From Jeotgalibaca sp. MA1X17-3 (lineage in GTDB: Bacteria; Bacillota; Bacilli; Lactobacillales; Aerococcaceae), in the NCBI RefSeq assembly GCF_021513155.1, contig NZ_CP090983.1:1984265-2008264 (forward strand): 24,000 bases of DNA, read 5' to 3'. Each line of letters starts with the position of its first letter. Position 1 is the stretch's first letter. The position numbers and the translations under genes are program-made. This document shows positions 4,319 through 21,490 of this stretch, in pieces. The notes under the pieces were generated by a model, which was given only the letters and a program-made list of their open reading frames with translations, made no database searches and was not told the origin of the DNA.

Positions 4319-5472
4319 CCTCTCAAGTATTTCCCTTGACTATCATAAATCCCCATTATTTCTGGTTTACCTGCTTGGATTCCTCTTACAAGAGCTACCT
4401 CACTTCTTGTTACAAAAATCTGAGTGCGTAATGCCATAATGGCTGTTGCTCCTATTGGCTCTTCTTCATTTACTTCTAAGTAATAATCAATATTTTCTTC
4501 TGGCAAAGATTTCATAGTAGACTGCCAGCGTTTGCCTTTTTGGTCAAATAGAACATATTTTAAATTCCCACGGCGATACAATCCGCCCCCATACAAGTAC
4601 GCATGTCCTTTAAAGTTATGAGAAACTTCACTGACATATACGTAAGCTGGGATTTCTGGTAAATCTTTTTCTGCATGCATAGGGGTTGTTCCAGTTAATG
4701 CATGCCCCGGCTCCCCTTGCGTTCCTTTTAATTCATTGATAAATGGTAACGTATATACAGAAGTTGTGGAAGGCATATTCAATTCCTTTGCTGGAAAACC
4801 AGCGTCCAGTAATAGATTTTGTGCTTTTAAAATCGTATCTGCATTATTTGTTTTTTCCAATATATCTTTTTTTGTATTTTGAAGGAAACAAGGAAATGAA
4901 GTTGCTCCAGCAATTTCAATATGGTCCAGTTCTTTAAAGGCATCAAAATACTCAGGCAGCTCCTTTAACTCAAACCCTCCATATTGCCCTGGATACAACG
5001 CATCCCCTTCATCGACTACACGGACTAATATTTTTTGGGTAATTGCTAATTCTTTTGCTGCTTGATTAATTTCTTTCAACTTATCTAGAGAATAAATGGT
5101 TATATATTCAGTGCCATATTCCATAATTTCTTTTAGTAAATGACTCGGAATCTGCACCAAATGACCTACGTTTCCTAATGGAATATGATTGGCCATCATC
5201 GTTTTCGCTTCACGAAAATCTACGACGACTGCTGCTGGAAATCCAGTTTTAATTAGTAATTTTGCTAAATCAGGATTTCGTCCAATTTGTTTAAGCATAA
5301 AGTACAATTCTATTCCTTGTTTGTCGGCTTCATCCAAAATAAGACGAGCATTTTTCAAAATAGCATCTACATCTAATACATACGTATCCGGTTGAATTTC
5401 TCCTGATTGATGCAGTTGAACAGCTGTATTAATTAGATTCGGATTTCGTTCTTTTGTTTTCTGCATAAACAT
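4315..5472 (-). CDS. yhfX: YhfX-like fold-type III PLP protein (alanine-racemase N-terminal barrel family)
   Basis: 385 aa. Sequence character and position (between the yhfY-like and yhfW-like genes) match the E. coli YhfX slot. Candidate PLP lysine in FMLKQIGRNP. Confidence 0.7.
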   Translation of the reverse strand: MFMQKTKERNPNLINTAVQLHQSGEIQPDTYVLDVDAILKNARLILDEADKQGIELYFMLKQIGRNPDLAKLLIKTGFPAAVVVDFREAKTMMANHIPLGNVGHLVQIPSHLLKEIMEYGTEYITIYSLDKLKEINQAAKELAITQKILVRVVDEGDALYPGQYGGFELKELPEYFDAFKELDHIEIAGATSFPCFLQNTKKDILEKTNNADTILKAQNLLLDAGFPAKELNMPSTTSVYTLPFINELKGTQGEPGHALTGTTPMHAEKDLPEIPAYVYVSEVSHNFKGHAYLYGGGLYRRGNLKYVLFDQKGKRWQSTMKSLPEENIDYYLEVNEEEPIGATAIMALRTQIFVTRSEVALVRGIQAGKPEIMGIYDSQGKYLRG

Positions 5473-5478
5473 AGGGTA

Positions 5479-5841
5479 TCACTTCCCTTTCTTGTTTTGA
5501 AGGAGCGTTACCAAATGTAGATAAAAGTAATCATCTTCATTTTTGGGGAAATCTACATTAATTTTCTCAGATAATTGCTTCCATACGGAAACAGCTTTTT
5601 CATATTCTATTGCTGCTTCAATTTCTTGTTTAATCATTGGATCTACAGAATCTACTTGTTCCTCATCTTTCCGTTGACGAGAAGTCGCCATCGCTAAATG
5701 AGTAATAAACGTATCTGCTTCATCTTCTTCTGTGATGACATTTTCTTGCTTCAAATAATTCAACGCTACTTGCATATCTTCGTATGTGGTCTCATCAATA
5801 ACATCATTTTCTTTTAAAATGGTTAACTTTTCTTGAATCAT
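5479..5841 (-). CDS. yhfY: YhfY-like stand-alone PRD-domain-like protein
   Basis: 120-aa acidic, helical-looking protein. AAGGAG lies 7 nt upstream of the ATG. Size and position between the yhfZ-like and yhfX-like genes match the E. coli cluster. Confidence 0.6.
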   Translation of the reverse strand: MIQEKLTILKENDVIDETTYEDMQVALNYLKQENVITEEDEADTFITHLAMATSRQRKDEEQVDSVDPMIKQEIEAAIEYEKAVSVWKQLSEKINVDFPKNEDDYFYLHLVTLLQNKKGK

Positions 5842-5866
5842 CTAAATTCTCCTTTGTTCACGTGTT

Positions 5867-6760
5867 TTAATACCGTGGGGTCATTTGTCCATTTTTAACT
5901 TGTGATTGAATATCACGAATTTGTTTTGTATCTAATGTGCGTTTTAAAGTGGAAGAAACGAGCGTATTATCTTTTTGACAAATAATAACTGCTTCACTCA
6001 TTTCTCGATGATGGTTCTTGACTGGTAATTCAATAAAGTACACATCTTCTAAACGTTTATCGATAATTTCATCATAGTTCCAAACTCCTGCGTCGATTTG
6101 TGATTCACGCAAACCATAAATTAATTGATTACTCGGCAAATCAACCTTTTCAACATCAAAACCTTCAATGATTTCATTGGTTAACAGCTTATGATCTAAT
6201 GAATCCGTATCAATTCCTACTCGTAGTCCATCTTTCATTACTTGTTCAACACCTTGACGGAAAAGTAAGACATGACGAGATAAGTACGTTTGTTCACCAA
6301 ACTGCATAATTACTTTAATCGCTCGGCCTTTATCGATTTCATGCTGTGCTGCGAATCGTGAGACAACCGCAAAGTCAAAAACCCCTTCTTCAACTGCACG
6401 AATTCGTTCTTCCGATCCACGTATATAAGCCAAATTTAATTTAATATTTTTATCGCGAAAAGCAGTATACAATCCTGTAGCTAATCCTTCATATAATCGG
6501 GAATAGGGTAAAGGCATCGTTGCAGAAAGTTGACTAGACGAAATATATTCTTGTAGAACTTGATGGTTGATCATTTTCAGAAAGGTTCCCAAATGTCCTT
6601 TACTTTCTGTTTCGATTGCTTGTTCTTCTTTAAGAAACTTTAATGCATTTTGTACCGTTCCTCTGGATAGTAAAAAAGTCGTTTGAAAGTCACTAATATT
6701 CGGCATACGGTCGCCTGTTTTTAATTGATAGAGTTCGTTAGCAATCTGTTCAATTGCCAA
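5867..6760 (-). CDS. yhfZ: YhfZ-like transcriptional regulator (N-terminal winged HTH plus C-terminal ligand-binding-like domain); start uncertain
   Basis: 297 aa from the TTG at 6760. HTH segment ISDFQTTFLLSRGTVQNALKFLKEE. The TTG directly abuts AAAGGA (no spacing), and an out-of-frame ATG at 6789 lies across an A7 run. Confidence 0.7.
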   Translation of the reverse strand: MAIEQIANELYQLKTGDRMPNISDFQTTFLLSRGTVQNALKFLKEEQAIETESKGHLGTFLKMINHQVLQEYISSSQLSATMPLPYSRLYEGLATGLYTAFRDKNIKLNLAYIRGSEERIRAVEEGVFDFAVVSRFAAQHEIDKGRAIKVIMQFGEQTYLSRHVLLFRQGVEQVMKDGLRVGIDTDSLDHKLLTNEIIEGFDVEKVDLPSNQLIYGLRESQIDAGVWNYDEIIDKRLEDVYFIELPVKNHHREMSEAVIICQKDNTLVSSTLKRTLDTKQIRDIQSQVKNGQMTPRY

Positions 6761-6812
6761 TCCTTTTTTTGGTAAAAGTATTTGTTCATTTTTTTATCTA
6801 CTTTCGTTTAAA

Positions 6813-7901
6813 TTACACTTCCATCGCTTGTTTGAGAATTCGTATAATGGTATCTGCTCCAGCACGCATAGGATTGATACGAATCGTATTAGTCTCTACA
6901 TCAGGAATAGCAGCACGGAACGTTCCGGATACTCGGTAGAACATCGGTACGATTTCATATTTTGATTCTGCTCCAACTGGATTGGGTGCAGCTCCTAATT
7001 TTTCGGCCTGTTCCAGCACTTTCTGTGCAATGGGCTCATTAAAGGTTACTAAAATAACTTTTGATTGTGCATTCGCAATAAAGGCTTTTTGGATACCGGG
7101 TACTTCCCCTTCATTCAAACGAGTAAATACTTCATCTGTAACTTTTGCAGACAAGGCAAGTGCTACTGGAGCATAGGTCATTCCACGTAATACATCTAGT
7201 GCTTCGAATCCTTGTACTTGTAGCCCGCCGGAATAATTTTCTTTACGAAGAAGGTCGATGTACTTCTGATCTCCTACAATGCACCCGACTCCTTCTGGTC
7301 CTAATACTTTAAACGTCGAGAAGCAAGAAAGGTTTGCTCCTTGCTCGCAGCCAATTTTAGGAATTTTCATAACGGCATAATTATCATCCGTAATGATGGG
7401 TCGATTGGGTGCAAATGTTTTAATGCATTGAATAACAGCTTGACTATCATAGGAATCATCTGGTTTCTGTCTCGTTAATTGAACTAAAGCACCATCAATT
7501 GTTTCGTTTTCTAATACTTTTTGTAACGCTTCTAAATCATTGAAATTGGCAACAACCGTCTGAATCCCTAACATATCTAACGTTACTTGTGTGGTTGGAT
7601 AAACAGGTGCTTCATGAACTAATAAAGTTGCATTTCTTGGCAAAGCTGCATGTATGGCCAAACGAATTGCCATCGTTCCGGCTCCTCTAATGAGCATCGC
7701 CGCTTCCGCATCAAAAAATTGAGCGAGTACTTTTTCTACTTTGTGCGTAGTGATCGGTTGATTGTAACCAGGGACGACACCTAAGTCTCCTCGAGTTAAA
7801 ATATCTTTTCCTTCAAAGACTTGCGTGATGGCATCCACTAAGCCAAATTGTTTTTCTGTTGCTTCTTCTACGGTAATGCTCTTTAATGGATAAGTTTTCA
7901 T
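6813..7901 (-). CDS. yhfS: YhfS-like fold-type I PLP-dependent enzyme (aminotransferase/SelA-like)
   Basis: 362 aa. Candidate Schiff-base lysine in SCFSTFKVLGPEG. AGGAGG upstream of the ATG. Confidence 0.75.
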   Translation of the reverse strand: MKTYPLKSITVEEATEKQFGLVDAITQVFEGKDILTRGDLGVVPGYNQPITTHKVEKVLAQFFDAEAAMLIRGAGTMAIRLAIHAALPRNATLLVHEAPVYPTTQVTLDMLGIQTVVANFNDLEALQKVLENETIDGALVQLTRQKPDDSYDSQAVIQCIKTFAPNRPIITDDNYAVMKIPKIGCEQGANLSCFSTFKVLGPEGVGCIVGDQKYIDLLRKENYSGGLQVQGFEALDVLRGMTYAPVALALSAKVTDEVFTRLNEGEVPGIQKAFIANAQSKVILVTFNEPIAQKVLEQAEKLGAAPNPVGAESKYEIVPMFYRVSGTFRAAIPDVETNTIRINPMRAGADTIIRILKQAMEV

Positions 7902-7920
7902 TTAGTCAGATACCTCCTAT

Positions 7921-8802
7921 TTAATAAGATGGATAAAATGTACGAGGATTGTCGACTAACATTTTTTGGATAAACTCTTCTGATAGTCCACCTTCACGTA
8001 GCAAGGGAATAAAGGAGTCTAGTAAGAAACTGTAGCCTAATCCATCTTTATACTCCAAATGTGATCGACGAGTAATATCCATTGAAAGGAAAACTCTATC
8101 GGTGTAGCCTGCTTTTTCGATTGCTTTTAACATCTCTAAACGAGTTGCATCGGGCATATAGTTTTCTTTTCCAACCGTATCAAATTCTACGTAAACTCCT
8201 TCTTTTAAAAGGTCCAATACATATTGCGTATCTCCGGTAAGATCAACATGACCAATAACAATTTTAGAAAGATCTGCACCTTGTTCTTTAAAAAATTCAA
8301 CTTGTTCTTTTCCATACGTACCTAGTGTCGTATGAGTAGTGATTGGAACTCCTGTTTCTTTTTGAGCGAAGACTGCAGCTTCAAAAACTTTACGTTCTCG
8401 TTCAGTCATTTCATTTTTACTCGTTCCAATTTCACCAATAAGTTCCGCCTTAATAGACGTTCCATCGATTCCTTTTTGGATATCGTCCATCATCATCTGT
8501 GCTAATTCTTCTACAGACTTTTCATAAATGTATTCTGGCAAGAATTTATCTTGATACCATCCGGTTGATTGTAAAATATTCATTCCAGAAGCTTCTGCTA
8601 CTCGTTGTACATATTCAGGATTGCGTTTCATCCCTCGTACGGTAACATCAACCACGTTTCGAACACCTTTTTCGTATAACTTCTTGTATTCTTTAACGGT
8701 TTCCTCAAAACAGTTTAGATTGGTATCTTCGGTATGTTTTAAGGAAGAGAGATCGATTGTTGTATGCTCATGTGCATAGGTGATTCCTTCAACTAGAGGC
8801 AT
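7921..8802 (-). CDS. php: Phosphotriesterase-homology protein (Php; amidohydrolase superfamily)
   Basis: YAHEHTTIDLS (HxH), GEIGTS, TTHT, IGHVDL and SMDITR metal-site motifs of the PTE family. I place the start at ATG 8802 (GAAAGGA 9 nt upstream; 293 aa) rather than the ORF-track GTG at 8862. Confidence 0.9.
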   Translation of the reverse strand: MPLVEGITYAHEHTTIDLSSLKHTEDTNLNCFEETVKEYKKLYEKGVRNVVDVTVRGMKRNPEYVQRVAEASGMNILQSTGWYQDKFLPEYIYEKSVEELAQMMMDDIQKGIDGTSIKAELIGEIGTSKNEMTERERKVFEAAVFAQKETGVPITTHTTLGTYGKEQVEFFKEQGADLSKIVIGHVDLTGDTQYVLDLLKEGVYVEFDTVGKENYMPDATRLEMLKAIEKAGYTDRVFLSMDITRRSHLEYKDGLGYSFLLDSFIPLLREGGLSEEFIQKMLVDNPRTFYPSY

Positions 8803-8875
8803 TTTATCCATTCCTTTCTCTGTGTTAAAAAGGGAAGGTGCCAAACCATTATGGTCTAGCACCTCTGTTTAATTT

Positions 8876-10180
8876 TTAAACGACTGGGGCAAATAGTCCC
8901 AGCACATAAAGAATATTTACAATAATTCCTAATGCGATTGCGGCAACAGGTCCAACTGCCATATCTACTAATGGTTTCTTAGCAGTACGGTTCATCAGAT
9001 AAGCTCCGAACACCCAGAAGAATCCAATTCCAGGAGCAATTTGTTCACTTGCCATCGCTCCACCTACTAGAAGAGCAATTTCTAAGACACGATTCATCGC
9101 GGTACGGATATGTTCACCCATGTCACGAACTCCAGGGAAACGATCCAATCCTTTTGCAGCTGCATTCAATAAGTTTACTTCAATAAACATAATCACTGCA
9201 CCAGCTAGGAAAGCAAAGATAGGATTTCCGTGCAACAAAATTCCAGCAACATAAACAAAAGTTGTTCCAGCTGGACTGTATACACCGGTAACAATAGCAG
9301 TAGAGAATACTAATGGAATAAAACCAATTCCTCTAGCAAAAGCAGCAAGTGCTGCTTCTCCAAATTTACCTTCACTTAATAGATTCAAGGATATTGGGTC
9401 ACCAGCAATAATCGTTAAACTGGTTGCAGCAGCAACTAGTCCACCTGCAACAGAAAGAATAATCCAGTTTTTCTTAATACGAGTAACCCGTTCAACGAAA
9501 ATACTAACTAAGTTTTGATTGTCGTCGGATTGACCTTTCACTTGGACTGCAAAGATAAGCATGAAGATCATTCCTACTAGAAGAGCCATTCCTTCTGCAG
9601 ATAAAGTAAAAGAAGTTTGTTCGTTTAATTGGAATGTTCCGAAACGTTTTACAATAAATAATACCAATGTACTGGTTGCTAATGTGATCGCACCTTTGTT
9701 AAATCCATGTTGATACGCAACAGCAACTGCTGGGAACACTGCAAATCCAATAACGATTGGGGTTCCAACTGCTCCAAGAGCACCTAATACATCAACTGGT
9801 AACATTGCGAATAAGTCAACCACTGCTTGTAAGCCTAATGTTAATGCGATACCATAAACGGCACCGATGACTCCGGCTATGATCATTCCTTTTTTACCAT
9901 CTGGAGTCCATGTACCAATAATATCGGTCATCAATAATAAACTATGAACTAAAATAATACTTGCTCCAATGGAAACCGGAATACCAAATCCGATTACCAA
10001 TCCAAAGCTGACTGCGAAACTGGTTGCTGCCAATTCTTTTTTACTAATGACCCCATCTAAGTATTCTGGCATAACGGGACGGAGGCCATCGTTAAATACA
10101 GCAATCCCCGTATTTGATAAGATAGCAGCGAGAGCACCTAATGCCCCTACAACAACTAATTGTATAATATCCAAACTCAC
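8876..10180 (-). CDS. yhfT: YhfT-like polytopic membrane protein (putative transporter)
   Basis: 434 aa, Gly/Ala/Val/Ile-rich, with about 11-12 hydrophobic segments. The AVFNDGLRPVMP N-terminal region and ...NILYVLGLFAPVV C-terminus resemble my recollection of E. coli YhfT. The true start may be TTG 10174 (9 nt after AAGGAG). Confidence 0.8.
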   Translation of the reverse strand: MSLDIIQLVVVGALGALAAILSNTGIAVFNDGLRPVMPEYLDGVISKKELAATSFAVSFGLVIGFGIPVSIGASIILVHSLLLMTDIIGTWTPDGKKGMIIAGVIGAVYGIALTLGLQAVVDLFAMLPVDVLGALGAVGTPIVIGFAVFPAVAVAYQHGFNKGAITLATSTLVLFIVKRFGTFQLNEQTSFTLSAEGMALLVGMIFMLIFAVQVKGQSDDNQNLVSIFVERVTRIKKNWIILSVAGGLVAAATSLTIIAGDPISLNLLSEGKFGEAALAAFARGIGFIPLVFSTAIVTGVYSPAGTTFVYVAGILLHGNPIFAFLAGAVIMFIEVNLLNAAAKGLDRFPGVRDMGEHIRTAMNRVLEIALLVGGAMASEQIAPGIGFFWVFGAYLMNRTAKKPLVDMAVGPVAAIALGIIVNILYVLGLFAPVV

Positions 10181-10201
10181 TCACTCCTTAATATTATAAT
10201 A

Positions 10202-10567
10202 TTATGATAATTTCAATAACTCATCCATTAGAATTGGAATTACATTTTCTTTGTGTTGTGCAGTAAATCCAAATGCAATTTTTCCTGAAGTAACTTGCTC
10301 CCGAATTTCTTCTTCTGCCATAATTTTTCCTGGCATAGAAACCGTTGCCGTTTTCGGTCTACCTACAAGTGCGATTGCCATCGCTAAAGCACCGCCGCCT
10401 CCTGTATTACAAGCGCCAAAGTAATAATCAGCTGTACCATTTTTAAGTGCCATCGCTGCTTCCAAATCACTTTTGGTTTCAATCTCGAATTTCCCTTGTG
10501 CATACTTCTCTACTAATTCTGCAACTTCTTTTTTGTCAATCTGGCCGCCTACTACAATTTTTTTCAT
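10202..10567 (-). CDS. yhfU: YhfU-like DUF2620 protein
   Basis: 121 aa. MKKIVVGG N-terminus and Gly-rich Cys motif YYFGACNTGGGGALAMAIA. GGAAGGA upstream of the ATG. First gene of the operon. Confidence 0.75.
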   Translation of the reverse strand: MKKIVVGGQIDKKEVAELVEKYAQGKFEIETKSDLEAAMALKNGTADYYFGACNTGGGGALAMAIALVGRPKTATVSMPGKIMAEEEIREQVTSGKIAFGFTAQHKENVIPILMDELLKLS

Positions 10568-10655
10568 TTTTTTCCTTCCTTTCTTTCTTTTTCAAACGTA
10601 CCAATGTACATTTTTTTGTATATTGGCATATATTGAAAACCTTTTCTTATAAGTA

Positions 10656-10756: not shown

Positions 10757-12121
10757 TTATTTTTTTATCGATTCGTATACTTTATTGGATATATCTTGAG
10801 ATAACTGCCCCGTACTAGCATAGGAGCTATCTTCTTTTTGTCCGTTATTTTGTTTATTGGTTAATATAATAATTTGTACGTTATATTCTGGATCAAAGAT
10901 TACTTGAGTTCCCGTAAAACCAGTATGGCTAAACGTTTGGTCAGAATGTTGGTCACCCATGTACCACTCTTTATTCAATTCCCATCCATATCCTTGTTCG
11001 AATCGTTGTGGGCTAATAAATGTTTGGAGAACTTCTTGACTATATAGTTCTACATCTTCATAAGTTCCTCCATTTAACATGGTCTGTCCTAAAACCGCTA
11101 AATCCTTAGCAGTAGAAAATAATCCTGCATGACCAGCAATTCCTTCATTTGCGTAGAAACCATTTCCATCATTTATTTCACCAACTAATGTATACTCTCT
11201 CCAGCCATCAAACATTTCTGGATCTTCTTCTACTGTATAGCCGAACTCATCATCTTCAATCATTTTATACTCGTAAGGATTTCCCCATGACGTTGCGGCA
11301 ATCGGTTGCTCTGTATTATCGGCAGCATTGAATAAAGTATCTTCCATTTGAAGCGGACCATAAATTTCATCTTGTAAATATTCATCTAAACGTTTATCTG
11401 TAACACTTTCTAAAATAAAGGCTAGAGTCATAAAACTGAAATCACTATATTTTCGGTCTGTTCCAGTTTCATATTCTAGAGGTAAATCATTAATGTAGTC
11501 CAGTACTTCTTCTCGATTTTTCGCAGTTAGATAAGTAGGTTCCCATGGCGTCAATCCCGATGTGTGAGTCAGTAAATCGGCAACCGTAACCTCTTCTTTT
11601 CCATTTTTACTAAAATCAGGTAAATACATAGCTACTTGATCGTCTACAGATATTTCACCTTCAGAAACTAATTTCATAATACCTTGCGTAGTTGCCATTA
11701 CTTTTGTAACAGATGCTAAATCAAATATTGTATCTGTTGTCATTTCAATTGGTTCATTTAGTTCTTCACCCATGTCATATTTTTGAGCATACCCATAGGC
11801 CGTTTCTTTTACAATCATATTATCTTTTGCAATAAGTACGACTGCTCCTGGAATAATTTTTTCTTCCATAGCAGCTTCAACAATTTGATCAATTTCAGCA
11901 AGTGTTTCTTCATCCATATTTGCTTCTTCAGCTGAGCCGTCTTTCAATTGGTTATCAGCCACTTGTTCTTCTGAAGATTGACTCTCCATCACTGAACTTT
12001 CTGTGGAAGAATTTTCTATTATAGAACTTTGTGATTCACTGTCCGTTTGATCTGTCGTTTGACATCCCGTTAGGAATACTGCCCCTGCAAGAATTGCTCC
12101 TGTTGCCATTCTTAATTTCAT
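10757..12121 (-). CDS. Lipoprotein serine hydrolase of the beta-lactamase/PBP4*/D-aminopeptidase fold
   Basis: Signal peptide with lipobox LTGC, a Ser/Glu-rich acidic linker, the SVTK (SxxK) nucleophile motif, YSD (YxN-like) and HTG (KTG-like) boxes. Confidence 0.85.
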   Translation of the reverse strand: MKLRMATGAILAGAVFLTGCQTTDQTDSESQSSIIENSSTESSVMESQSSEEQVADNQLKDGSAEEANMDEETLAEIDQIVEAAMEEKIIPGAVVLIAKDNMIVKETAYGYAQKYDMGEELNEPIEMTTDTIFDLASVTKVMATTQGIMKLVSEGEISVDDQVAMYLPDFSKNGKEEVTVADLLTHTSGLTPWEPTYLTAKNREEVLDYINDLPLEYETGTDRKYSDFSFMTLAFILESVTDKRLDEYLQDEIYGPLQMEDTLFNAADNTEQPIAATSWGNPYEYKMIEDDEFGYTVEEDPEMFDGWREYTLVGEINDGNGFYANEGIAGHAGLFSTAKDLAVLGQTMLNGGTYEDVELYSQEVLQTFISPQRFEQGYGWELNKEWYMGDQHSDQTFSHTGFTGTQVIFDPEYNVQIIILTNKQNNGQKEDSSYASTGQLSQDISNKVYESIKK

Positions 12122-12208
12122 ATTTTATCTTCCTTTCTATTTGTACATGATTACGTATCAATATACAATATTTTATATATTGATGCATAAACTATGTTCT
12201 ATAATTTA

Positions 12209-12237
12209 TACTAAAGTATATAAAATTCGATTGCAAG
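12209..12237 (-). promoter_or_regulatory. Candidate promoter of the serine-hydrolase gene
   Basis: Minus strand reads AAACCC-TTGCAA-17 nt-TAGTAT. The -35 region is identical over 14 nt to that of the php/yhf operon promoter. Confidence 0.35.
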
Positions 12238-12251
12238 GGTTTACATCTATT

Positions 12252-12280
12252 TGACAAAACCTCATTAAAAGTTGATAGTG
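12252..12280 (+). promoter_or_regulatory. Candidate promoter of the amidase-like gene
   Basis: TTGACA (12252-12257), 17-nt spacer, GATAGT (12275-12280). Followed by RBS GAGAGGTG and ATG 12311. Confidence 0.45.
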
Positions 12281-12310
12281 GGTTATAAGATAAATAGAGA
12301 GGTGAAAAAT

Positions 12311-13321
12311 ATGGAACCCAGTGAATGGATTAACGTGGCAAATCAAACCTTTATTGCTATGAAAAACCCTTACGAAAGTGTAGAAAAAGTATATCCTCGT
12401 GCATTAGAAAAGTATTCAGTGGGAAGTCGTTACATGGGCGTAAAAAACAAAGTTCAAATTCCACGTCATTTGATTGAACAATTAGAAACCTTTGGCTATA
12501 TCCTCCATACATTGGATAAGGCTAGTATGGGAGGTCGAGCTATTGATGTATCCTTAACCAATCCAATAAGTGGTCGCCCAATGACCGGTTCATCTAGTGG
12601 AACAGCTATCAATGTTCTATTAGGAATCAATGATTTAGGGATTGGTACAGATGGGGGCGGCTCAGTACTCGCACCTGCGATGGCAGTCCAACTATTCGGA
12701 TTTATTTGCCCGATCATTGAACAAGAACATTTGGAAAATTTTTCCTCAACCTCAACCGATGGAATTGGTTTTCACGCTTCTATCGGATTTATGAGTCGAG
12801 AATTTGAAGTTATTTTACATGCAATTCAGTGTGTTCTTCCATTGGAAGATACAAAAACCATTGCTTCCCCTAGGATTTTTGCAACAGGTTCTTTTGATGA
12901 TTTAGATGTAGCAGAAAATGTAAAAGTCGTTCAGACTCCTAACCTATTTGGCGAACGCGAGCCTCTTATTGATTTCTTGAAAGAAAATTTACCACAGTGT
13001 GACTTCTTGATTTCCAAAGAAGGTCCTGCAGATTTTCTAGGTTTTGGTGATACTGTGCTAGGGCATTTAGGCAATGAAGCTACCCGTTTACAACAGTCCT
13101 CTGGAAAAGGTCTGATTCGTGTCGCGAATATGGTTGATGCTACTGCGCTCGTCGTACCAACAAAAGATTTCGCTTGTGGATATGTACTCCTTTGCGAATC
13201 AACCTTACCAAAAGTGAAAGCGATGCTGGAATTTGCAAAAACAATTGCCCTTCCTCAAGATCCTCTATTGAAAAAATATTTTCAAAATATAGAGAATTAC
13301 TTTCCTGATGAATTTATTTAA
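12311..13321 (+). CDS. Short amidase-signature (AS) family protein
   Basis: TGSSSGTAINVLLGINDLGIGTDGGGSVLAPA matches most positions of the AS-family signature (GGSSGG...GTDxGGSxRxPA). Only 336 aa from ATG 12311. That start is preferred over the ORF-track TTG 12272, which would lie inside the predicted promoter. Confidence 0.75.
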   Translation: MEPSEWINVANQTFIAMKNPYESVEKVYPRALEKYSVGSRYMGVKNKVQIPRHLIEQLETFGYILHTLDKASMGGRAIDVSLTNPISGRPMTGSSSGTAINVLLGINDLGIGTDGGGSVLAPAMAVQLFGFICPIIEQEHLENFSSTSTDGIGFHASIGFMSREFEVILHAIQCVLPLEDTKTIASPRIFATGSFDDLDVAENVKVVQTPNLFGEREPLIDFLKENLPQCDFLISKEGPADFLGFGDTVLGHLGNEATRLQQSSGKGLIRVANMVDATALVVPTKDFACGYVLLCESTLPKVKAMLEFAKTIALPQDPLLKKYFQNIENYFPDEFI

Positions 13322-13608: not shown

Positions 13609-15273
13609 TTACATAGTAATTTCGTCGCTATTAGTGACTTTCATGAATATCAACAAGGAAACGACAGTGAAAAGAGTTAAAATGGTAGATAATGCTGCGG
13701 CAATCCCATAGTTCCCACGAATAACTTCCGTATAGATGGCAACAGTCATGGTTCGGGTACGCACATTATACAAGAGAATCGAAGTGGAAAGTTCGCTAAG
13801 CATTGTGATCCAGCTAAGGATTGCACCGGAAATAATTCCAGTCATCATCATCGGAACTGTTATCCGAAAGAATGTATTGACCTGTCCGCTTCCCAAGCTA
13901 GCTGCAGCTTCTTCTATTGAAGGCGATATTTGCATAAGCGCCGCAACAGAGGAACGAATCGTATATGGTAAGCGACGAACTGCTAATGAAATAATTAGAA
14001 TCGATGCTGTCCCAGTAATGGCGAGCACACCACTTCCCCCTATACCTGTGTTAAAGGAGGTTAAGAAAGCAATCCCCATTACCGTTCCCGGTACAATATA
14101 GGGAATCATACTGAGAGAATCGATTGCATTCGTAACTGGATTGCGTTTTCGTACTGCTAAATAAGAAATAAAAATAGCAAAAATTACGACTACAACCATT
14201 GCTAACAAAGGGATACGAATTGTGTTGAAAATAGCTGATCCCATTCGAGTAAAGGCTTCACGGTAACTATTTAATGAATAACCTGGTTGGAATACCATTC
14301 CTTTCGTATTTAAGAAAGAAGTATAAATTAAGTATCCTTGGGGTAGAATCGCTAAGAATACGATGCCATAAGTAACTAGGTATACTATTATTTTTTTCAA
14401 TCCGCTAATTGGTTTCACCACAACTGGATGCAAAGAGCTCATCGTTACTGACTGTCTTCGTGAAACGGAACGCTGAATTAAAAATATAATCAAAGCAATA
14501 AAAATAGCAATAATAGCTAACGCGGACGCAAAGGCAGCATCTCCCCCTACCTCACTCATGAATTCTGAGTAAATCAATACCGGGAAGGTTCGATATCCTT
14601 CTCCAATTAGCATTGGTGTCCCAAAATCGGAAAAGGCACGCATAAATACAAGTAAGGCTCCAGCTAAAATAGTTGGTACTAGTAAAGGGAAAATCACTTT
14701 AAAAAAACGATTCAACCCTGTACTCCCCATACTTTCAGCTGCTTCTAGTATAGAATTATCGATATTGCGGAATGCCCCATTTACATAAAGAAAAATTAGT
14801 GGAAATAACTGTAGAGTGAAAACCAAAGTAATTCCAGTGAACCCATAAATATCAGGCATTTGGAAACCAAATGCATTACTTATAAAACGGGTGATCACTC
14901 CATTTCTTCCCAATAATAAAATCCACGAATAGGCTCCAATAAAGGGTGCTGACATAGAAGCAATAATAATGAGGATTCGTAATACCTTTTTCCCTTTAAA
15001 ATCGAACATTGCAAAAAAGTATGCCAACAAAATTCCTAATACTAATGAAAAGATAGTAGCAGTCATCGAAACTTTAAAACTATTCCAAAGTGTATCTGAA
15101 TAATAACTTTTAGAAAAAAAAGTAATAAAGTTTTCAAAGCTAATTCCCTGTTCGGTCATAATAGCTTGGCGTAAAACATTTCCTACCGGATAAACGAGAA
15201 AAATCAGATAAGTAAATAAAATAAACAAAGAGGAGCTATTCCAAAGATTCAAGTTCCATTTCTTTTTGTTCAC
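13609..15273 (-). CDS. ABC importer permease, fused double domain (AfuB/FbpB/ThiP type)
   Basis: 554 aa with about 12 hydrophobic segments in two homologous halves. The start overlaps the ATPase stop. Confidence 0.85.
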   Translation of the reverse strand: MNKKKWNLNLWNSSSLFILFTYLIFLVYPVGNVLRQAIMTEQGISFENFITFFSKSYYSDTLWNSFKVSMTATIFSLVLGILLAYFFAMFDFKGKKVLRILIIIASMSAPFIGAYSWILLLGRNGVITRFISNAFGFQMPDIYGFTGITLVFTLQLFPLIFLYVNGAFRNIDNSILEAAESMGSTGLNRFFKVIFPLLVPTILAGALLVFMRAFSDFGTPMLIGEGYRTFPVLIYSEFMSEVGGDAAFASALAIIAIFIALIIFLIQRSVSRRQSVTMSSLHPVVVKPISGLKKIIVYLVTYGIVFLAILPQGYLIYTSFLNTKGMVFQPGYSLNSYREAFTRMGSAIFNTIRIPLLAMVVVVIFAIFISYLAVRKRNPVTNAIDSLSMIPYIVPGTVMGIAFLTSFNTGIGGSGVLAITGTASILIISLAVRRLPYTIRSSVAALMQISPSIEEAAASLGSGQVNTFFRITVPMMMTGIISGAILSWITMLSELSTSILLYNVRTRTMTVAIYTEVIRGNYGIAAALSTILTLFTVVSLLIFMKVTNSDEITM

Positions 15274-16355
15274 TCCGTCACCCCCTGTAGGTTCCTCGTC
15301 CCATCAGCGGTAAATACATTAATTTTTTGCGTATTAATATTCAAATAAATTTCATCACCTGGGTTAAGATTGACATGGAAGGTTGATTCTTCACTAAATT
15401 GAACTCGTTCTCCAGAATCCAAATGTAAATAGTACTCGGTATTTTGCCCTAAATAAATACTGTCCAAAATTTCTGCATGAATATCACCTTTTTCATGTAC
15501 ACGGACAAATTCTTCTGGACGAATACTGATACGAATATCTTGTTCTGGCTCATCCTTTAACGCTGGGAAAGGAATTTTATATCCAGTTGGTAGTTGAAGA
15601 TGCGTCACACCATTTTCTTTTACTAACTTTCCATCCAACATATTCGTACGACCAATAAAAGTCGCTACAAATTCATTGCTTGGACGATGGTATAACTCTT
15701 TCGGATTTCCAATTTGTTGAATTTCGCCTTTAAGCATTACAGCTATTTTATCGGAAATAGCCATTGCTTCTTCCTGGTCATGGGTTACATAAACAGTAGT
15801 GATACCAACTTCTCTTTGGATTTCGCGAATAGCTTGTCGCATTTCTACACGCAACTTTGCATCCAAATTACTCAGCGGTTCATCCATTAACAAAACATCT
15901 GGATTAATAGCTAATGCTCTTGCAAGAGCAACCCGTTGTTGCTGACCTCCACTAAGTTTATCTGGTTTTCGATCTTGATATTCATCAATTTGCATTAATT
16001 GTAAATACTTGTCTGCATTGATTTTAATACTATCTTTAGATAATTTTCGTTGTTTTAATCCAAATTCAACATTATCTCGAACGGTTAGATGTGGGAAAAT
16101 AGCATAGTTTTGAAAAACCATTCCAATATTTCGTTTACTGGGATCTTTATCATTAATTCTGGTTTCATTGAAATAAAAATCTCCACCTTCTATGGTGTTA
16201 AACCCTGCTATCATACGCAGCAGGGTTGTTTTTCCACATCCAGATGGTCCCAAAAGAGTAAAAAGAGTTCCATCTGGGATTGTAACAGATAAATCAGCAA
16301 TAACTGGTTGGCCGTAATATTCTTTTCGGGCATGTTTAATGATAATTTCACTCAT
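15270..16355 (-). CDS. ABC importer ATP-binding protein (AfuC/FbpC/PotA type with C-terminal regulatory/TOBE-like domain)
   Basis: Walker A GPSGCGKT, signature LSGGQQQR, Walker B LLMDEPLS, H-loop VTHD. Confidence 0.92.
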   Translation of the reverse strand: MSEIIIKHARKEYYGQPVIADLSVTIPDGTLFTLLGPSGCGKTTLLRMIAGFNTIEGGDFYFNETRINDKDPSKRNIGMVFQNYAIFPHLTVRDNVEFGLKQRKLSKDSIKINADKYLQLMQIDEYQDRKPDKLSGGQQQRVALARALAINPDVLLMDEPLSNLDAKLRVEMRQAIREIQREVGITTVYVTHDQEEAMAISDKIAVMLKGEIQQIGNPKELYHRPSNEFVATFIGRTNMLDGKLVKENGVTHLQLPTGYKIPFPALKDEPEQDIRISIRPEEFVRVHEKGDIHAEILDSIYLGQNTEYYLHLDSGERVQFSEESTFHVNLNPGDEIYLNINTQKINVFTADGTRNLQGVTE

Positions 16356-16370
16356 ATGACTACCACCTAC

Positions 16371-17423
16371 CTATCTATTGGATTCGATGTCTACAAAAAC
16401 ATCCGTGTAGTGATCTACAATTTTTTGTTTATTTTCAATCACATAGTCCATATCTTCTTCCAGTATCTTAATATCATCTAATGGTTTCATATTTTCACTC
16501 GTTTCAGCATCTTTACGTACCGGTCTATTCGTCGTTGTTGTTCCCAATACATTTTGGATATCTTCAGAAATAACAAAATCAACAAATAATTTAGCATTTT
16601 CCATATTCTCAGCATCCTTGATAACAGCAATGCTTGCTGGTAAGAACACGGTTCCTTCTTCTGGATACACAATTTCTACATTTGCCCCATCATTTAACAG
16701 CTTAACTGTTGGATCTTCATAAGAAAGACCTACTGTCATTTCTCCATCCGCTACTGTTTTGTAAACATTACTGGAGCTTGAACTAATTTTTCCATCAACT
16801 AAAGTGAAAACGTCTTTTACATAATCCCAGGCTTCGTCACTCTCATATCCACCTTTTGCAGCTAACATATTCGTTAGTTGTGCAAATGCACTCGAGGAAT
16901 TTGCTGGATCAGCCGTAGCAATCTTTCCTTTTAATTCAGGATTCAACAAGTCTTCATAACTTTTAATTTCAATATCTCCAATTAAATCTGGGTTTACGAC
17001 AATCACACTACCATCAATCGTATATGGTGTGTAAAAACCAGTTGTATTTTGATATTCAGTTACTAACGCATCGTTCTCTTCAGGAGTATATTCTTCAAAT
17101 AATTCTGTACTTTGTGCATATTGAGAATACGCACCTCCAAAAATAATATCTGCTATAGGAGCATTTTTTTCACTTTCTAATTTTGTAAACAGTTCGCCTG
17201 TTCCTGCTTGGATTAATTCTACTTTAATATCATATTTTTCTTCAAAAGCAGGAATCGTTGCATTTATTAAGCCTTCTGAGTTTGGAGAATAAACGACAAG
17301 TGTACTCGATCCAGCAGTAGTATTACCCGTTGAATCTGTATTTGCTTCGTCACCATTCCCACATGCGCCTAAAAATAATAACGTTAATGCTGCAGTCGAC
17401 AAAACTTTTCTTATTTTACTCAT
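16371..17423 (-). CDS. Lipoprotein ABC substrate-binding protein (AfuA/FbpA family)
   Basis: Signal peptide with lipobox LGAC. About 330-aa mature protein of the Fe3+/thiamine/sugar-phosphate SBP class. AAGGGGGA RBS. Confidence 0.85.
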   Translation of the reverse strand: MSKIRKVLSTAALTLLFLGACGNGDEANTDSTGNTTAGSSTLVVYSPNSEGLINATIPAFEEKYDIKVELIQAGTGELFTKLESEKNAPIADIIFGGAYSQYAQSTELFEEYTPEENDALVTEYQNTTGFYTPYTIDGSVIVVNPDLIGDIEIKSYEDLLNPELKGKIATADPANSSSAFAQLTNMLAAKGGYESDEAWDYVKDVFTLVDGKISSSSSNVYKTVADGEMTVGLSYEDPTVKLLNDGANVEIVYPEEGTVFLPASIAVIKDAENMENAKLFVDFVISEDIQNVLGTTTTNRPVRKDAETSENMKPLDDIKILEEDMDYVIENKQKIVDHYTDVFVDIESNR

Positions 17424-17509
17424 TTAAAATTCCCCCTTACTATTTTCTCTATCTTACCAACAATGACAGCGCATACATATCCGAAAAACAAACATTTTAG
17501 GAGAAAATC

Positions 17510-17872
17510 CTACATTTGAGAAAGATTCATAAATTCACTAGCACTCATATTAATATATTTTTTAAAAACTTGATTAAAATATTTGTAGTCGTTGAAACCA
17601 CACTGGGTTGCTACTTCATACAACTTCACTTCTTTATTTTTTAACAATTCAATCGATTTTTGGATCCGATATCGGTTTACATAATCATTAAATGTAAGGT
17701 GCATGTATTCTTTAAAACGATTGTGCAACAAGGTCGGACTATATCCAATTGTCTGAGCTACATCTTGAAAAATAAATCGTTTGTCATAATTTTGTTCAAC
17801 GTAGTGGATCATCTGTTGAATGACACCATCTTGAATAGAAGTAATATGTCTACCAATTAATTCAGGGTTCAT
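17510..17872 (-). CDS. AraC-type HTH DNA-binding domain, encoded as a separate ORF (C-terminal half of a YesN/HptR-type response regulator)
   Basis: 120 aa with two AraC HTH units (...VAQTIGYSPTLLHNRFKEY... and ...VATQCGFNDYKYFNQVFKKY...). No SD precedes its ATG. The ATG overlaps the receiver ORF stop (ATGA). Confidence 0.8.
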   Translation of the reverse strand: MNPELIGRHITSIQDGVIQQMIHYVEQNYDKRFIFQDVAQTIGYSPTLLHNRFKEYMHLTFNDYVNRYRIQKSIELLKNKEVKLYEVATQCGFNDYKYFNQVFKKYINMSASEFMNLSQM

Positions 17873-18282
17873 TTGCGCTTCTGTCTTTTCTTTTTTTCTG
17901 TGAAGTGTTGATTGATTTCACATTGTTGCTGGGCTCTTTGGAGAGCTTTTTCAAATTGTTCTGATTCAATCGGCTTTACAATAAACTCACTTACCCCATA
18001 TTGTATGGCTTTTTGAGCATTAACAAATTCATCATATCCTGAAACAATAATAGCACTGTATGGAAATTCCATTGTTTCTTCAAACATTTGAAAGGCATTT
18101 TTGATTGGCATATTAATGTCGGTAATGACAATATCAGGTTGCAATTCTTTAATCTTTTGAATGCCTTCCTGTCCATTAGATGCTTCTCCTACAACTACAC
18201 AATCCCATTTTTCATAGTTAAATCCATATATCATTCCTTTGCGAATAATGTACTCATCTTCCACAATTAATACCCGATACAT
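17869..18282 (-). CDS. Response-regulator receiver domain (N-terminal half of a YesN/HptR-type regulator)
   Basis: 137 aa. Acidic pocket VEDE, phospho-acceptor Asp in IVITDINMP, conserved Lys in FIVKP. GGAG lies 10 nt upstream of the ATG. Confidence 0.88.
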   Translation of the reverse strand: MYRVLIVEDEYIIRKGMIYGFNYEKWDCVVVGEASNGQEGIQKIKELQPDIVITDINMPIKNAFQMFEETMEFPYSAIIVSGYDEFVNAQKAIQYGVSEFIVKPIESEQFEKALQRAQQQCEINQHFTEKKKRQKRK

Positions 18283-18287
18283 AATAG

Positions 18288-19940
18288 CTACACTCCTATC
18301 CTAATCTCTACAATAGTATATTGATTTTGTTTTATCAGATTAAATTTTGTTTTTGGGTACATAAGTTGAATACGCTTCTTACTATTAATTAATCCATGGT
18401 GATTACCCATGGGAATATTATTTTGAAGGTTATCATTGATTTGGAAACTTTTTTCCCTCGTCAAATTATCTCCATTATCCTTTACTTGAATCAAGAAAAT
18501 TCGATCAGTTTCTTTTTTTCCTGAAATCGTAATGTGTAAATCAGTACGTTTTTGAAAGCCGTATTTCAGACTATTTTCAATGAGTGGCATTAAAAATAAT
18601 TTGGGAACAAAAATTTGTTCACACTCCGTATCTAAATCTATTTTATAATCAAAATGCTCAAATCTAGCTTTATTTATTTCGAGATACTCTTCAATAAAAA
18701 CAATATCATTTAATAATTTCACTTCTGGATTTTCTTCGTTGATACTATAACGTAATATTTTATTCAGTCGGATAATTAGTTGATTAGCCAAATCTTTGTC
18801 GAAATAAAGCGAAGCACGAATGACTTCCAATGTATTGTAAAGAAAATGTGGGTTGAATTGTGCTTCTAGTTTTTTTCTTTCCGCTAACAAATTAGCTTGC
18901 AGTAGTGAAATGTTGTTGTGATGCACGGAGGAAAGTTCTTCCAACATCAGATTGATACGTCTTGATACGATTTCAAATTCGTCCTTTGTATGAATATTTA
19001 GACGATGCGTGGGATCTTTTCTAATAATTTTCATTTCATTAATTAATTTTTCTAAGGATTTTGCATTTCGTAAAGAAATTCTTTTCGAAAATAAAAAGGC
19101 AAATCCAAGCATCATACTAGCAATTAATAGTACAATCATTGTACTAATGGTTAAGAAATACGGATACATCAAACTTTTTTGATAAACCGTTAGCGTAAGA
19201 GCCGGTGTGAGGGATGTCGTTTGTGAATAGAATAAATCATTTCTGTATTTAAATTGATTTTCAAACAAGGTGCTCTCTACTCTTCCAAGAGTTCCCGTAA
19301 TGAAATCAGAAGAGCTGGAGGATAAAACATTATCAAATTTATCAGAAATAACATATTGGCTTTGCGTTTGGTTGAGGTTCGATCGAATTTCCTTACCATT
19401 AATAATAGTCACAGCATATCCTTTGGGAACAAATAAATTCCGGATAGGTGTGGTTAAAATTAAGTAGTGTTCCTTGTCATTGTCCATAAAAATTTTTTGA
19501 GTAGAATCCATATGTTCTTCTTTCATTTTTTCTGTTATAACCGACAGGAAATTCATAAATATCCCGGAATCGTCCCAATATGGATTACTGCTGAATTCAA
19601 GTTGCATATTTTGATTTACAATCATTAATTCACTTTTTAGTTCATTTTTAGAATTAAATGCATAAAAATTAGAATATATGGTAGGATCATTGCTTTTACC
19701 ATTTAAATAATCTAGATAAATCGTTTCTGCATTATCTTCCATTCGTTTTTCATATTCTTGAAGATTCTCTGTAAACAGTTGTTGAATGTTACTCTCCGTA
19801 TGATTGAGTTGCATGCGTGTCGTTGTAGTATTTAGCCAATAAAGAATCACACTTAGAATAATAGTAACTAATATAGTCATACCAAATGAATACATAAGGA
19901 TTTCCTTTTGTAATTTTTTTTGAAATGGTATTTTTTGCAT
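18288..19940 (-). CDS. Sensor histidine kinase, YesM/HptS type
   Basis: Two TM segments flank an ~220-aa extracytoplasmic domain, followed by a HAMP-like linker. The FNPHFLYNTLEVI H-box matches the LytS/YesM-type His_kinase domain, and a C-terminal ATPase domain follows. Start set at ATG 19940 (GGGAGGG 6 nt upstream) rather than TTG 19946. Confidence 0.88.
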   Translation of the reverse strand: MQKIPFQKKLQKEILMYSFGMTILVTIILSVILYWLNTTTTRMQLNHTESNIQQLFTENLQEYEKRMEDNAETIYLDYLNGKSNDPTIYSNFYAFNSKNELKSELMIVNQNMQLEFSSNPYWDDSGIFMNFLSVITEKMKEEHMDSTQKIFMDNDKEHYLILTTPIRNLFVPKGYAVTIINGKEIRSNLNQTQSQYVISDKFDNVLSSSSSDFITGTLGRVESTLFENQFKYRNDLFYSQTTSLTPALTLTVYQKSLMYPYFLTISTMIVLLIASMMLGFAFLFSKRISLRNAKSLEKLINEMKIIRKDPTHRLNIHTKDEFEIVSRRINLMLEELSSVHHNNISLLQANLLAERKKLEAQFNPHFLYNTLEVIRASLYFDKDLANQLIIRLNKILRYSINEENPEVKLLNDIVFIEEYLEINKARFEHFDYKIDLDTECEQIFVPKLFLMPLIENSLKYGFQKRTDLHITISGKKETDRIFLIQVKDNGDNLTREKSFQINDNLQNNIPMGNHHGLINSKKRIQLMYPKTKFNLIKQNQYTIVEIRIGV

Positions 19941-20047
19941 CAACAACCCTCCCTTCCACTCACTTTTGGAGCGCTTACACTTTATTGTTACTTTTAGTTT
20001 AGCAGAATTATGGTGTTAAATCACTATACGTTTACCAGTACAAAAAT

Positions 20048-20878: not shown

Positions 20879-21490
20879 TTATTCATTACGCTCAGATAGA
20901 TAGACATAATACTGTGTCCAGGTTGCATTTTGATAAGGGACGGCATATAAACCGACTAAACCGAATGTTAACGCACTGGCAATATTCCATAAGACAAAAG
21001 AAAAGTCCATAATGAATAAATCTATTTTATATCCGTACGTCATATCTTGACTTAATTTGATAGCATCTGCAATTCCTATCTCAGGGTCATCTGCTAGGAT
21101 ATAGGGAACCATCGAGTAGGCATACCCTTTAACAACTCCAGGGATGATAAATAAGAACGTCCATAGAACTGTATAAATACCAACGATAATCATAGCAGCA
21201 ATATCGCGAACCCATTGTGCGTTTCGGAATAGACTATCGGTAGCATTTTGGTAGACACCATCGGTTAAATCAATAGCGACTCTTGTTAAAGGAACCGTTA
21301 GAATCAATTGTAAGAGATTTAACCAGCGAACACGAATATCAAAAAAGGAAACTGGATCAAATTCGGATGATACTTGGCTTTGAGAATTTGCATAAGATAA
21401 AATAATGGTAATGATTCCTACTAATAACCAGGGGATGTAATTGCGTCGAACGATTTCTTTAGCATTTTGTTTAAGATGGACCCTATTCAT
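20879..21490 (-). CDS. DUF975-family integral membrane protein
   Basis: 203 aa. N-terminus MNRVHLKQNAKEIVRRNYIPW... followed by several hydrophobic segments, as in DUF975 proteins of Firmicutes. Confidence 0.7.
   Translation of the reverse strand: MNRVHLKQNAKEIVRRNYIPWLLVGIITIILSYANSQSQVSSEFDPVSFFDIRVRWLNLLQLILTVPLTRVAIDLTDGVYQNATDSLFRNAQWVRDIAAMIIVGIYTVLWTFLFIIPGVVKGYAYSMVPYILADDPEIGIADAIKLSQDMTYGYKIDLFIMDFSFVLWNIASALTFGLVGLYAVPYQNATWTQYYVYLSERNE

Follow-up and report, generated by a model that had tools for sequence, protein, structure and literature searches.

Is the Pit-type importer of Jeotgalibaca sp. MA1X17-3 an iron transporter? A two-component module with a possible organophosphate ligand

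Does the ATP-binding cassette (ABC) importer that Jeotgalibaca sp. MA1X17-3 encodes next to a two-component system (TCS) carry iron, or does it carry a phosphorylated organic compound? The question is raised by a stretch of 24,000 nucleotides of this genome (contig NZ_CP090983.1, positions 1,984,265 to 2,008,264; hereafter the window), whose minus strand carries at 13609-19946 six open reading frames (ORFs) for five functions, in the order LytS/YesM-type kinase, receiver (REC)-AraC regulator, lipoprotein substrate-binding protein (SBP), ATPase and fused permease. A sequence-only reading had named these five functions at 13609-19940, which was borne out with all genes on the minus strand, and had proposed that the module senses and imports phosphosugars rather than iron. 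This proposal stood in part: the nearest relatives of the SBP are organophosphate binders, but the transporter is orthologous to streptococcal Pit, whose genetics point to iron. In our judgement, an organophosphate importer under two-component control is the likeliest single reading, with about even chances of being right, and both structure and regulation cast doubt on the iron label.

The evidence that carries this reading comes from the SBP, a lipoprotein of 350 aa with lipobox Cys21 (16371..17423, on the minus strand like every gene and site of the module given below; Pfam SBP_bac_6/8/11). When its single sequence was compared with the PDB, the best matches were HptA (3e-33), AfuA (2e-32), VcA0625 (3e-27) and P5PA (8e-25), and iron binders followed from 1.5e-15 down to 1e-5. 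A profile built from 43 orthologs returned HptA (3e-41), AfuA (7e-39), VcA0625 (6e-37) and P5PA (4e-32), with the best iron binder, Campylobacter jejuni Fbp, at 2e-24. The HptA structures 6lki/6lkg were the top match by sequence and by profile; 6LKG and 6LKH are HptA-HptS complexes (PMC8050422). We also submitted an AlphaFold (AF2) model of the SBP (pLDDT 86.5) to Foldseek, where ranks 1-9 were taken by AfuA (E 6e-29, TM-score up to 0.86), HptA, VcA0625, P5PA and then PhnS; HptA ranked 5th (E 6e-27), and the Fbp/Hit/Fut iron proteins appeared at about 1e-22 or weaker. Among these proteins, VcA0625 is a "periplasmic G6P binding protein" (G6P, glucose 6-phosphate), P5PA binds pyridoxal phosphate (PLP), and PhnS (STM0429, 4r6y) binds 2-aminoethylphosphonate (2-AEP). 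The affinity to sugar-phosphate rather than FbpA-type binders that had been suggested from the sequence was therefore upheld by the structural ranking, with the G6P binders HptA, AfuA and VcA0625 first and the FbpA type well behind. AfuABC of Actinobacillus, Citrobacter and enterohaemorrhagic Escherichia coli, which handles hexose and heptose phosphates, and VcA0625 of Vibrio cholerae were the top structural matches, with TM-scores of 0.76-0.86. AfuABC shares with the window the transporter class, the fused permease and the phosphate-contact positions, and it was long annotated as an iron transporter; in the literature searched we found no dedicated YesMN-type TCS for it, whereas the window has one.

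The pocket of the SBP was mapped through pairwise and profile alignments, not by distance, and the comparison rests on the contacts of AfuA and P5PA, whose phosphate contacts have been described (PMC8427247, PMC4546632). The phosphate half is kept: G36/S37/G38 of AfuA correspond to G74/T75/G76, S148/G149/T150 to S176/S177/S178, and S184/G185 to the run S214-S218. These cradle segments lie at the N-termini of the model helices 75-84, 177-189 and 217-225, are invariant or nearly so in the 43 orthologs, and match the three-helix dipole arrangement described for P5PA. In addition, the local motifs SYE(Q/D), EGT and RKD are common to HptA and the window SBP. The pocket segments remain (nearly) invariant from the window to a locus labelled S. 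pneumoniae (L037), and since the pocket positions hardly vary across orthologs, the ligand, whichever it is, should be the same across the Pit family.

Judged by sequence, the transporter is an ortholog of streptococcal Pit (pit1ADBC) of the Carnobacteriaceae type, together with the TCS that accompanies Pit in most species. Next to the SBP lie an ATPase of 361 aa (15270..16355; Pfam ABC_tran and, at the C-terminus, a TOBE domain, TOBE_2) and a fused two-module permease of 554 aa (13609..15273; two Pfam BPD_transp_1 stretches), and the SBP, ATPase and permease are about 69, 69 and 72% identical to streptococcal Pit (67-72% to mitis-group loci). The orthology follows from the mapping of published D39 primers to the orthologous SBP and ATPase genes: in mitis-group loci the quantitative PCR primers for D39 spd_0225 (pit1) match the ATPase gene and converge, those used to clone D39 pitA (SPD_0226) match the orthologous SBP gene, and translation of the pitA forward primer gives MTVGLSY, found at residues 229-235 of the window SBP. 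The pneumococcal system (SP_0240-0243 / SPD_0223-0227) has the same transporter genes in the same order, preceded by a kinase and an AraC regulator of like kind, and it shares the promoter boxes described below. The window differs from it in belonging to another lactic-acid-bacterial family and in its frameshifted regulator; it also encodes one SBP only, where many mitis-group loci carry a tandem pair of SBP genes.

The gene cluster itself is therefore known, as a further member of a Pit-plus-TCS operon that was described in 2016 as an iron system. In the comparative genomics of S. tigurinus, pitA, pitC and pitD were called "a ferric iron ABC transporter" with the regulators reg_RR and reg_SK, and similar clusters of pit and regulator genes were stated for S. 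mitis and S. pneumoniae TIGR4 (PMC4978470). One of the loci that we collected (L039) is a contig of S. tigurinus AZ_3a, a strain of that study, where pitA-pitD-pitC stand with reg_RR and reg_SK (PMC4978470). No paper that links Pit to AfuA or HptA was found in the literature searched. The tandem SBP genes of mitis-group Pit loci lie between regulator and ATPase, as at 4798-5838 and 6001-7047 of L089 and at 46 other loci among L028-L107; the two proteins are 59% and 68% identical to the window SBP, and the promoter boxes stand 5' of the second gene only. In the first of the two, a few positions of the putative pocket deviate, with PNPED in place of PNSEG and TETTIRP in place of TTTTNRP as examples.

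Of 80 genome loci that the SBP alignment retrieved, 75 keep the five-gene order, an arrangement far beyond chance, even though the loci are kin and 75/80 is for that reason not a statistic. These loci belong to Fundicoccus, Enterococcus, Alkalibacterium, Vagococcus and a large number of streptococci, in the main from the mitis group, and two of the five that lack the full order are cut by contig ends. The same order was seen in Jeotgalibaca porci, S. porcinus, the contig L008 and four further genomes that were fetched individually. The transporter proteins are 67-85% identical across genera (permease 70-85% in orthologous loci), and the figures for orthologous loci are 34-69% for the regulator and 24-58% for the kinase. 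Within the genus the module is patchy, being present in two of the seven congeners searched. As for its neighbours, a His_Phos_1 gene ("phosphoglycerate mutase family") lies convergent to the Pit permease at 9902-10594 (minus strand) of L089, the sole mitis-group locus scanned; neither the window nor J. porci has this gene beside the module.

The second line of evidence concerns the TCS. Kinase and regulator had been read as being of the HptS/HptR type, and their Pfam types do match those of HptS and HptR. The kinase is a LytS/YesM-type sensor histidine kinase of 550 aa (18288..19940; Pfam His_kinase PF06580, E 3e-18); its ORF has 552 codons for amino acids, and the ATG at 19940, with GGAGG 5' of it, gives the 550 aa seen in relatives. 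It consists of a first transmembrane helix, an extracytoplasmic domain of about 220 aa, a second transmembrane helix, a linker, the His_kinase domain and the ATPase domain, with hydrophobic spans at about 18-40 and 263-287 on either side of the outside domain. The H-box EAQFNPHFLYNTLEVI holds His367, and H-box and N-box are invariant in an alignment of six orthologs. Among orthologs, the outside domain is 25-54% identical, as against 36-67% for the cytoplasmic part. The AraC-type regulator has the REC and AraC helix-turn-helix (HTH) domains that had been predicted, but it is not one gene here: the two domains lie on separate ORFs, a receiver ORF of 137 aa (17869..18282; Pfam Response_reg, E 7e-20) and a double-HTH ORF of 120 aa (17510..17872; Pfam HTH_18, E 4e-18, and HTH_AraC).

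The closest known counterpart is HptRSA of S. aureus, in which the SBP HptA, the kinase HptS and the AraC regulator HptR control uhpT. The domain types of kinase and regulator are shared, and HptA is the best match of the window SBP. HptA is however a sensor only, and its target is the antiporter UhpT, whereas the SBP of the window is directly followed by its own ATPase and permease; the gene order also differs, being kinase-regulator-SBP in the window and SBP-kinase-regulator in HptRSA. No UhpT/GlpT-family member scored above cut-off in the genome (best TIGR00881 match 71 bits against 408), so the adjacent ABC system is the natural target of the TCS, and control of a distant uhpT was rejected. 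A LytS/YesM kinase and an AraC-output regulator that switch on an adjacent importer are known from Clostridium beijerinckii, where the xylose sensor XylFII-LytS-YesN controls xylFGH (PMC8050422). In that system the sensing is done by a separate, transport-inactive SBP of another fold family, whereas the window encodes one SBP only. A separate trio was observed in a congener (G005, contig C53; L019:3154-6718), with SBP, kinase and regulator in the order hptA-hptS-hptR and no ABC genes after them. The SBP of this trio is closest to AfuA and P5PA, and the trio is divergent from a gene for a mannose-6-phosphate-isomerase-like cupin, which adds a second sign that sugar phosphates may be what such trios sense.

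Two boxes mark the spacer between regulator and SBP. The upstream box GTAGGATTTTCTCC (17500..17513), a candidate regulator site, is T-rich and lies over the regulator stop codon, and its exact sequence occurs once in the genome. Its core GTAGGATTTTCYCC is invariant in five Jeotgalibaca-like loci and reads GTAGAGAATTTT(C/A)CTC in Enterococcus and Streptococcus loci, with the related boxes GTAGAGAATTTTCTCC, GTAGAGAATTTTACTC and GTAGATAATTTTCCCC at the same place. About 20-25 nt downstream, a box resembling the catabolite-responsive element (cre), TGTATGCGCTGTCA (17464..17477; one mismatch to TGWAANCGNTNWCA), occupies the -35 position of the SBP promoter, with the -10-like TAAGAT (17451-17456) 3' of it. 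The cre-like box is perfect at the same place in the congeners L015 (TGAAAGCGATTTCA) and L016 (TGAAAACGTTAACA), and sites with at most one mismatch stand 52-65 nt 5' of the SBP start codon in 17 of 61 distinct spacers, compared with 0.26 per kb in the flanks, in relatives that are not independent. The leader of the kinase gene holds a weaker cre-like site, TGTAAGCGCTCCAA (19966..19979; two mismatches to TGWAANCGNTNWCA), which an extended -10-like TGCTAAACT precedes; the partial conservation of this site (one mismatch in L015, two in L028, three in L008) is weak evidence. From their sequences, the upstream box may be the site of the regulator and the second box a CcpA site. Control of S. aureus hptRS by CcpA is reported (PMC6291074), and the cre-like boxes of the window are a point of likeness to HptRSA in this respect.

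We take the module to be self-contained, serving both to sense and to take up a nutrient, and infer the following on which class of ligand it binds, how the signal travels, what the two boxes do and how catabolites exert control. The lipoprotein SBP would capture a phosphorylated organic compound, with phosphates of sugars or polyols as the first candidates; the ligand would not be bare Fe3+, and it would not be bound with the sugar-recognition residues of AfuA. The SBP would hand the compound to the fused permease and the ATPase. The kinase may detect the same compound outside the cell through its PAS/Cache-like domain of about 220 aa, either directly or via the loaded SBP, and would then phosphorylate the REC-AraC regulator; detection via the SBP would give this protein the double role in transport and signalling that had been suggested from the sequence. 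The regulator in turn would activate the weak promoter in the spacer before the SBP gene by binding the GTAGGATTTTCYCC-type box, and the cre-like box over the -35 region would place the operon under catabolite repression.

Several points weigh against an organophosphate ligand or against its sensing and control along this route. The identity of the SBP to any characterised binder is 24-33% (about 28-33% to HptA and AfuA), and neither HptA nor AfuA is as close to it as are over 150 uncharacterised clusters at 50% identity, so that it belongs to a large uncharacterised subfamily and is no close relative of these two. The AfuA sugar contacts H205/D206/E229, which define the AfuA family according to Sit et al., are replaced in the pairwise and profile alignments by D237/P238/L261, residues that are invariant in the orthologs; because of this replacement the SBP, at about 28% identity, fails the AfuA motif. 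AfuA Y103 and Q269 likewise correspond to I136 and T298, and the ring contacts Y103 and H203 of P5PA are not kept. Of the AfuA pocket, the phosphate-holding Ser/Thr/Gly positions thus survive but the sugar-recognition residues do not. FbpA-type iron proteins also hold a synergistic anion, so that a kept anion cradle alone does not exclude a metal complex. The cre-like box could also be the regulator's own -35-proximal site instead of a CcpA site, and the relatives counted for the conservation of the module are dominated by one streptococcal group.

A further point on the same side is the sensor domain of the kinase. The kinase is HptS-like in its Pfam type, but no resemblance of its outside domain to the sensor domain of HptS could be detected, either in a PDB sequence search (E<=1) or among the top 50 of Foldseek. 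The PDB sequence match of the kinase covers the catalytic core only (6swj), and a word search found three homologues of the outside domain. An AF2 model of this domain from a 5-row alignment reached pLDDT 60 with the last 70 residues unmodelled, and this low-confidence model gave weak, generic PAS/Cache matches to LuxQ, DctB and KinD (E about 1e-3). These matches would fit a Cache-like sensor, and they neither support nor exclude docking of an SBP in the manner of HptS; LuxQ works through the SBP LuxP.

The remaining points against an organophosphate come from pneumococcal genetics, and they favour a Pit-type importer of ferric iron, or of an iron-chelate or iron-anion complex, whose expression is tuned by the adjacent TCS. 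Loss of pneumococcal pitA adds to the growth defects of piu and pia mutants in chelated medium, FeCl3 partly rescues these defects, and the triple mutant has still less cellular iron. Expression of spd_0225, the ATPase gene of pit1 that also goes by pitD1 or pitB, is up about 9-10-fold in two mutants with disturbed iron homeostasis and 1.7-fold in one iron-chelating condition. Together with the orthology to pit1ADBC and the S. tigurinus study, in which operon and TCS were read as iron uptake (PMC4978470), these results make up the published case. In the SBP itself, the C-lobe pocket segment Y235-E236-D237-P238 offers with Y235/E236/D237 invariant hard-oxygen donors at what would be the position of the FbpA Tyr pair, an equivalence that was drawn through AfuA and not from an FbpA alignment.

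We nevertheless regard iron as an unlikely ligand. PitA protein in wild-type D39 is unchanged in level by iron starvation. The D39 pitA gene is truncated, so that much of the Pit genetics used a fragment, and the fragmentary products have been handled as cytoplasmic proteins. No direct identification of a Pit ligand was found in the literature searched, in which the support for iron is genetic. Systems of the FbpABC/HitABC/FutA type, which share the SBP superfamily, the fold and the transporter architecture and are the source of the automatic "iron(III)" annotation, score far lower than the organophosphate binders, all of the nearest solved relatives of the SBP being of the latter kind. The Tyr-Tyr ligands of those systems are absent: as had been noted from the sequence, no adjacent pair exists, and no YY dipeptide occurs anywhere in the SBP. 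In the N-lobe, the positions P47/S49 and G97, placed by alignment to AfuA, offer no His or Glu. AraC-output YesMN-type systems and cre-like boxes are typical of carbon-source uptake. In line with the predicted lack of a Fur box, no Fur-like site was found in the promoters, in a test that is weak for lactic acid bacteria, which often use other iron regulators: the 19-mer Fur box had no match at three or fewer mismatches, and the 7-1-7 Fur box had two matches against 4.5 expected, neither of them in a promoter. With regard to other iron systems in the genome, we noted one Peripla_BP_2 SBP, and the FeoB_N matches look like generic GTPases.

Improbable, in our estimate, is a third reading, in which the same TCS senses another charged compound, such as 2-AEP, a vitamin phosphate (PLP or thiamine (pyro)phosphate), a polyamine, or inorganic polyphosphate or pyrophosphate. 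The top structural matches of the SBP include P5PA and PhnS (4r6y), the sugar contacts of AfuA are replaced in it, and the best NCBIfam matches of the transporter point to a putative 2-AEP system, PhnS2/PhnT2/PhnU2. These matches fall far under the cut-offs, however. The SBP scored 140.8 with PhnS2 against a cut-off of 392.75, followed by thiamine and polyamine binders; the best matches of the ATPase were UgpC, PhnT2 (349.3 against 457.7) and PotA, all below cut-off; and the permease reached 177.3 bits with PhnU2 against 593.25. No PhnX phosphonatase was found above the curated cut-off in the genome, which would leave a 2-AEP role without its usual catabolic partner, and with all scores under the cut-offs the 2-AEP reading was rejected. 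The loss of the P5PA ring contacts speaks against PLP. Vitamin importers are usually riboswitch-controlled or constitutive rather than two-component-controlled. Finally, no catabolic neighbour gene is conserved beside the module across genera, which fits a compound that enters central metabolism directly.

Whether induction still works in this strain is a separate question, which is raised by the split regulator. The receiver and HTH ORFs overlap in ATGA, where the TGA of the first covers the ATG of the second. The frame breaks at GAA AAA AAG (17890..17898), a run of seven A (A7) with a deficit of one nucleotide relative to relatives, as aligned with L008 and L005. We used L008, a syntenic metagenome contig with about 88% DNA identity to the window, as the reference for comparing indels: its GAAAAACAAG stands as GAAAAAAAG in the window, and this is the sole uncompensated frame-breaking indel in the five genes. 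The regulator is a single protein of 255-257 aa in L008, J. porci and S. porcinus, and the regulator matches in four more genomes of the order are uninterrupted. The receiver ORF is 94% identical to residues 1-134 of the intact 257-aa L008 regulator and the HTH ORF, also at 94%, to residues 127-257, its start being an internal Met of the intact protein.

An assembly error at the A7 run and a real mutation appear about equally likely, and in the latter case induction would be lost or altered in this strain. We see the scales as level on whether the module is decaying here, with a real frameshift and an induction that is lost or rewired, for example through a free AraC domain that acts without phosphorylation or through rare -1 slippage that yields a little full-length regulator. 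The deficit is seen against all relatives compared and is alone among the five genes, and at least 12 other runs of 7-8 A/T inside window ORFs stay in frame, so that homopolymer miscalls are not pervasive here. On the other side, the assembly has two contigs, which suggests long reads, and long reads miscount homopolymers. In the receiver frame the A7 run forms an A AAA AAG heptamer, at which a -1 slip would yield a 257-aa product of native length. The heptamer is however absent from relatives in the alignment at the break, and no stabilising RNA structure was found 3' of it, where the sequence folds worse than its shuffles (z = +1.08). For these reasons we do not see a designed recoding site; programmed -1 frameshifting as a designed feature was rejected and slippage kept only as possible leakiness. 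Elsewhere, three mitis-group loci (L074, L078 and L098) have the Pit transporter with no kinase or regulator within 6 kb upstream, and in L062 and L097 the regulator match covers only part of the protein. Loss of the TCS thus seems to recur in the Pit family.

What the organophosphate reading would mean reaches beyond Jeotgalibaca. Reviews list Pit among the three classical iron importers of S. pneumoniae and count it among virulence-linked lipoprotein systems, while the window shows that the Pit family normally travels with a carbohydrate-style TCS and a cre-like promoter box. If the ligand is an organophosphate, an entry in the streptococcal iron-uptake inventory would change, lactic acid bacteria would gain a new nutrient route, and HptRSA-type sensing would acquire an evolutionary link to ordinary ABC import. 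If it is iron, the Pit family would bind this metal, and be controlled, in an unusual manner. We put forward only tentatively, and consider on balance somewhat unlikely, the widest form of this view: that Pit as an entire family, the "third iron transporter" of pneumococci included, has been mis-assigned as AfuABC once was and is a catabolite-repressed, TCS-induced organophosphate importer, in which one ancestral SBP would supply the permease and also signal to the kinase, and of which HptA would be a sensing-only descendant.

Several neighbours of the module are worth recording. A complete cluster of yhfZ, a PRD protein, yhfX, a yhfW-like metalloenzyme, yhfS, php, yhfT and a yhfU-type gene adjoins it at 3092-10567 of the window. 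Synteny for this cluster is seen in L008 but not in J. porci, which makes the cluster independent of the module. Two genes, both kept in L008, separate it from the permease (10757-13321): one encodes a lipoprotein of 454 aa with a beta-lactamase fold, the other a short protein of 349 aa with an amidase signature, whose Pfam Amidase match covers 43 residues only. On the other side of the module, at 20879-21490, a DUF975 ORF of 203 aa matches only the last 100 of the 243 Pfam profile positions and may be N-terminally diverged or truncated.

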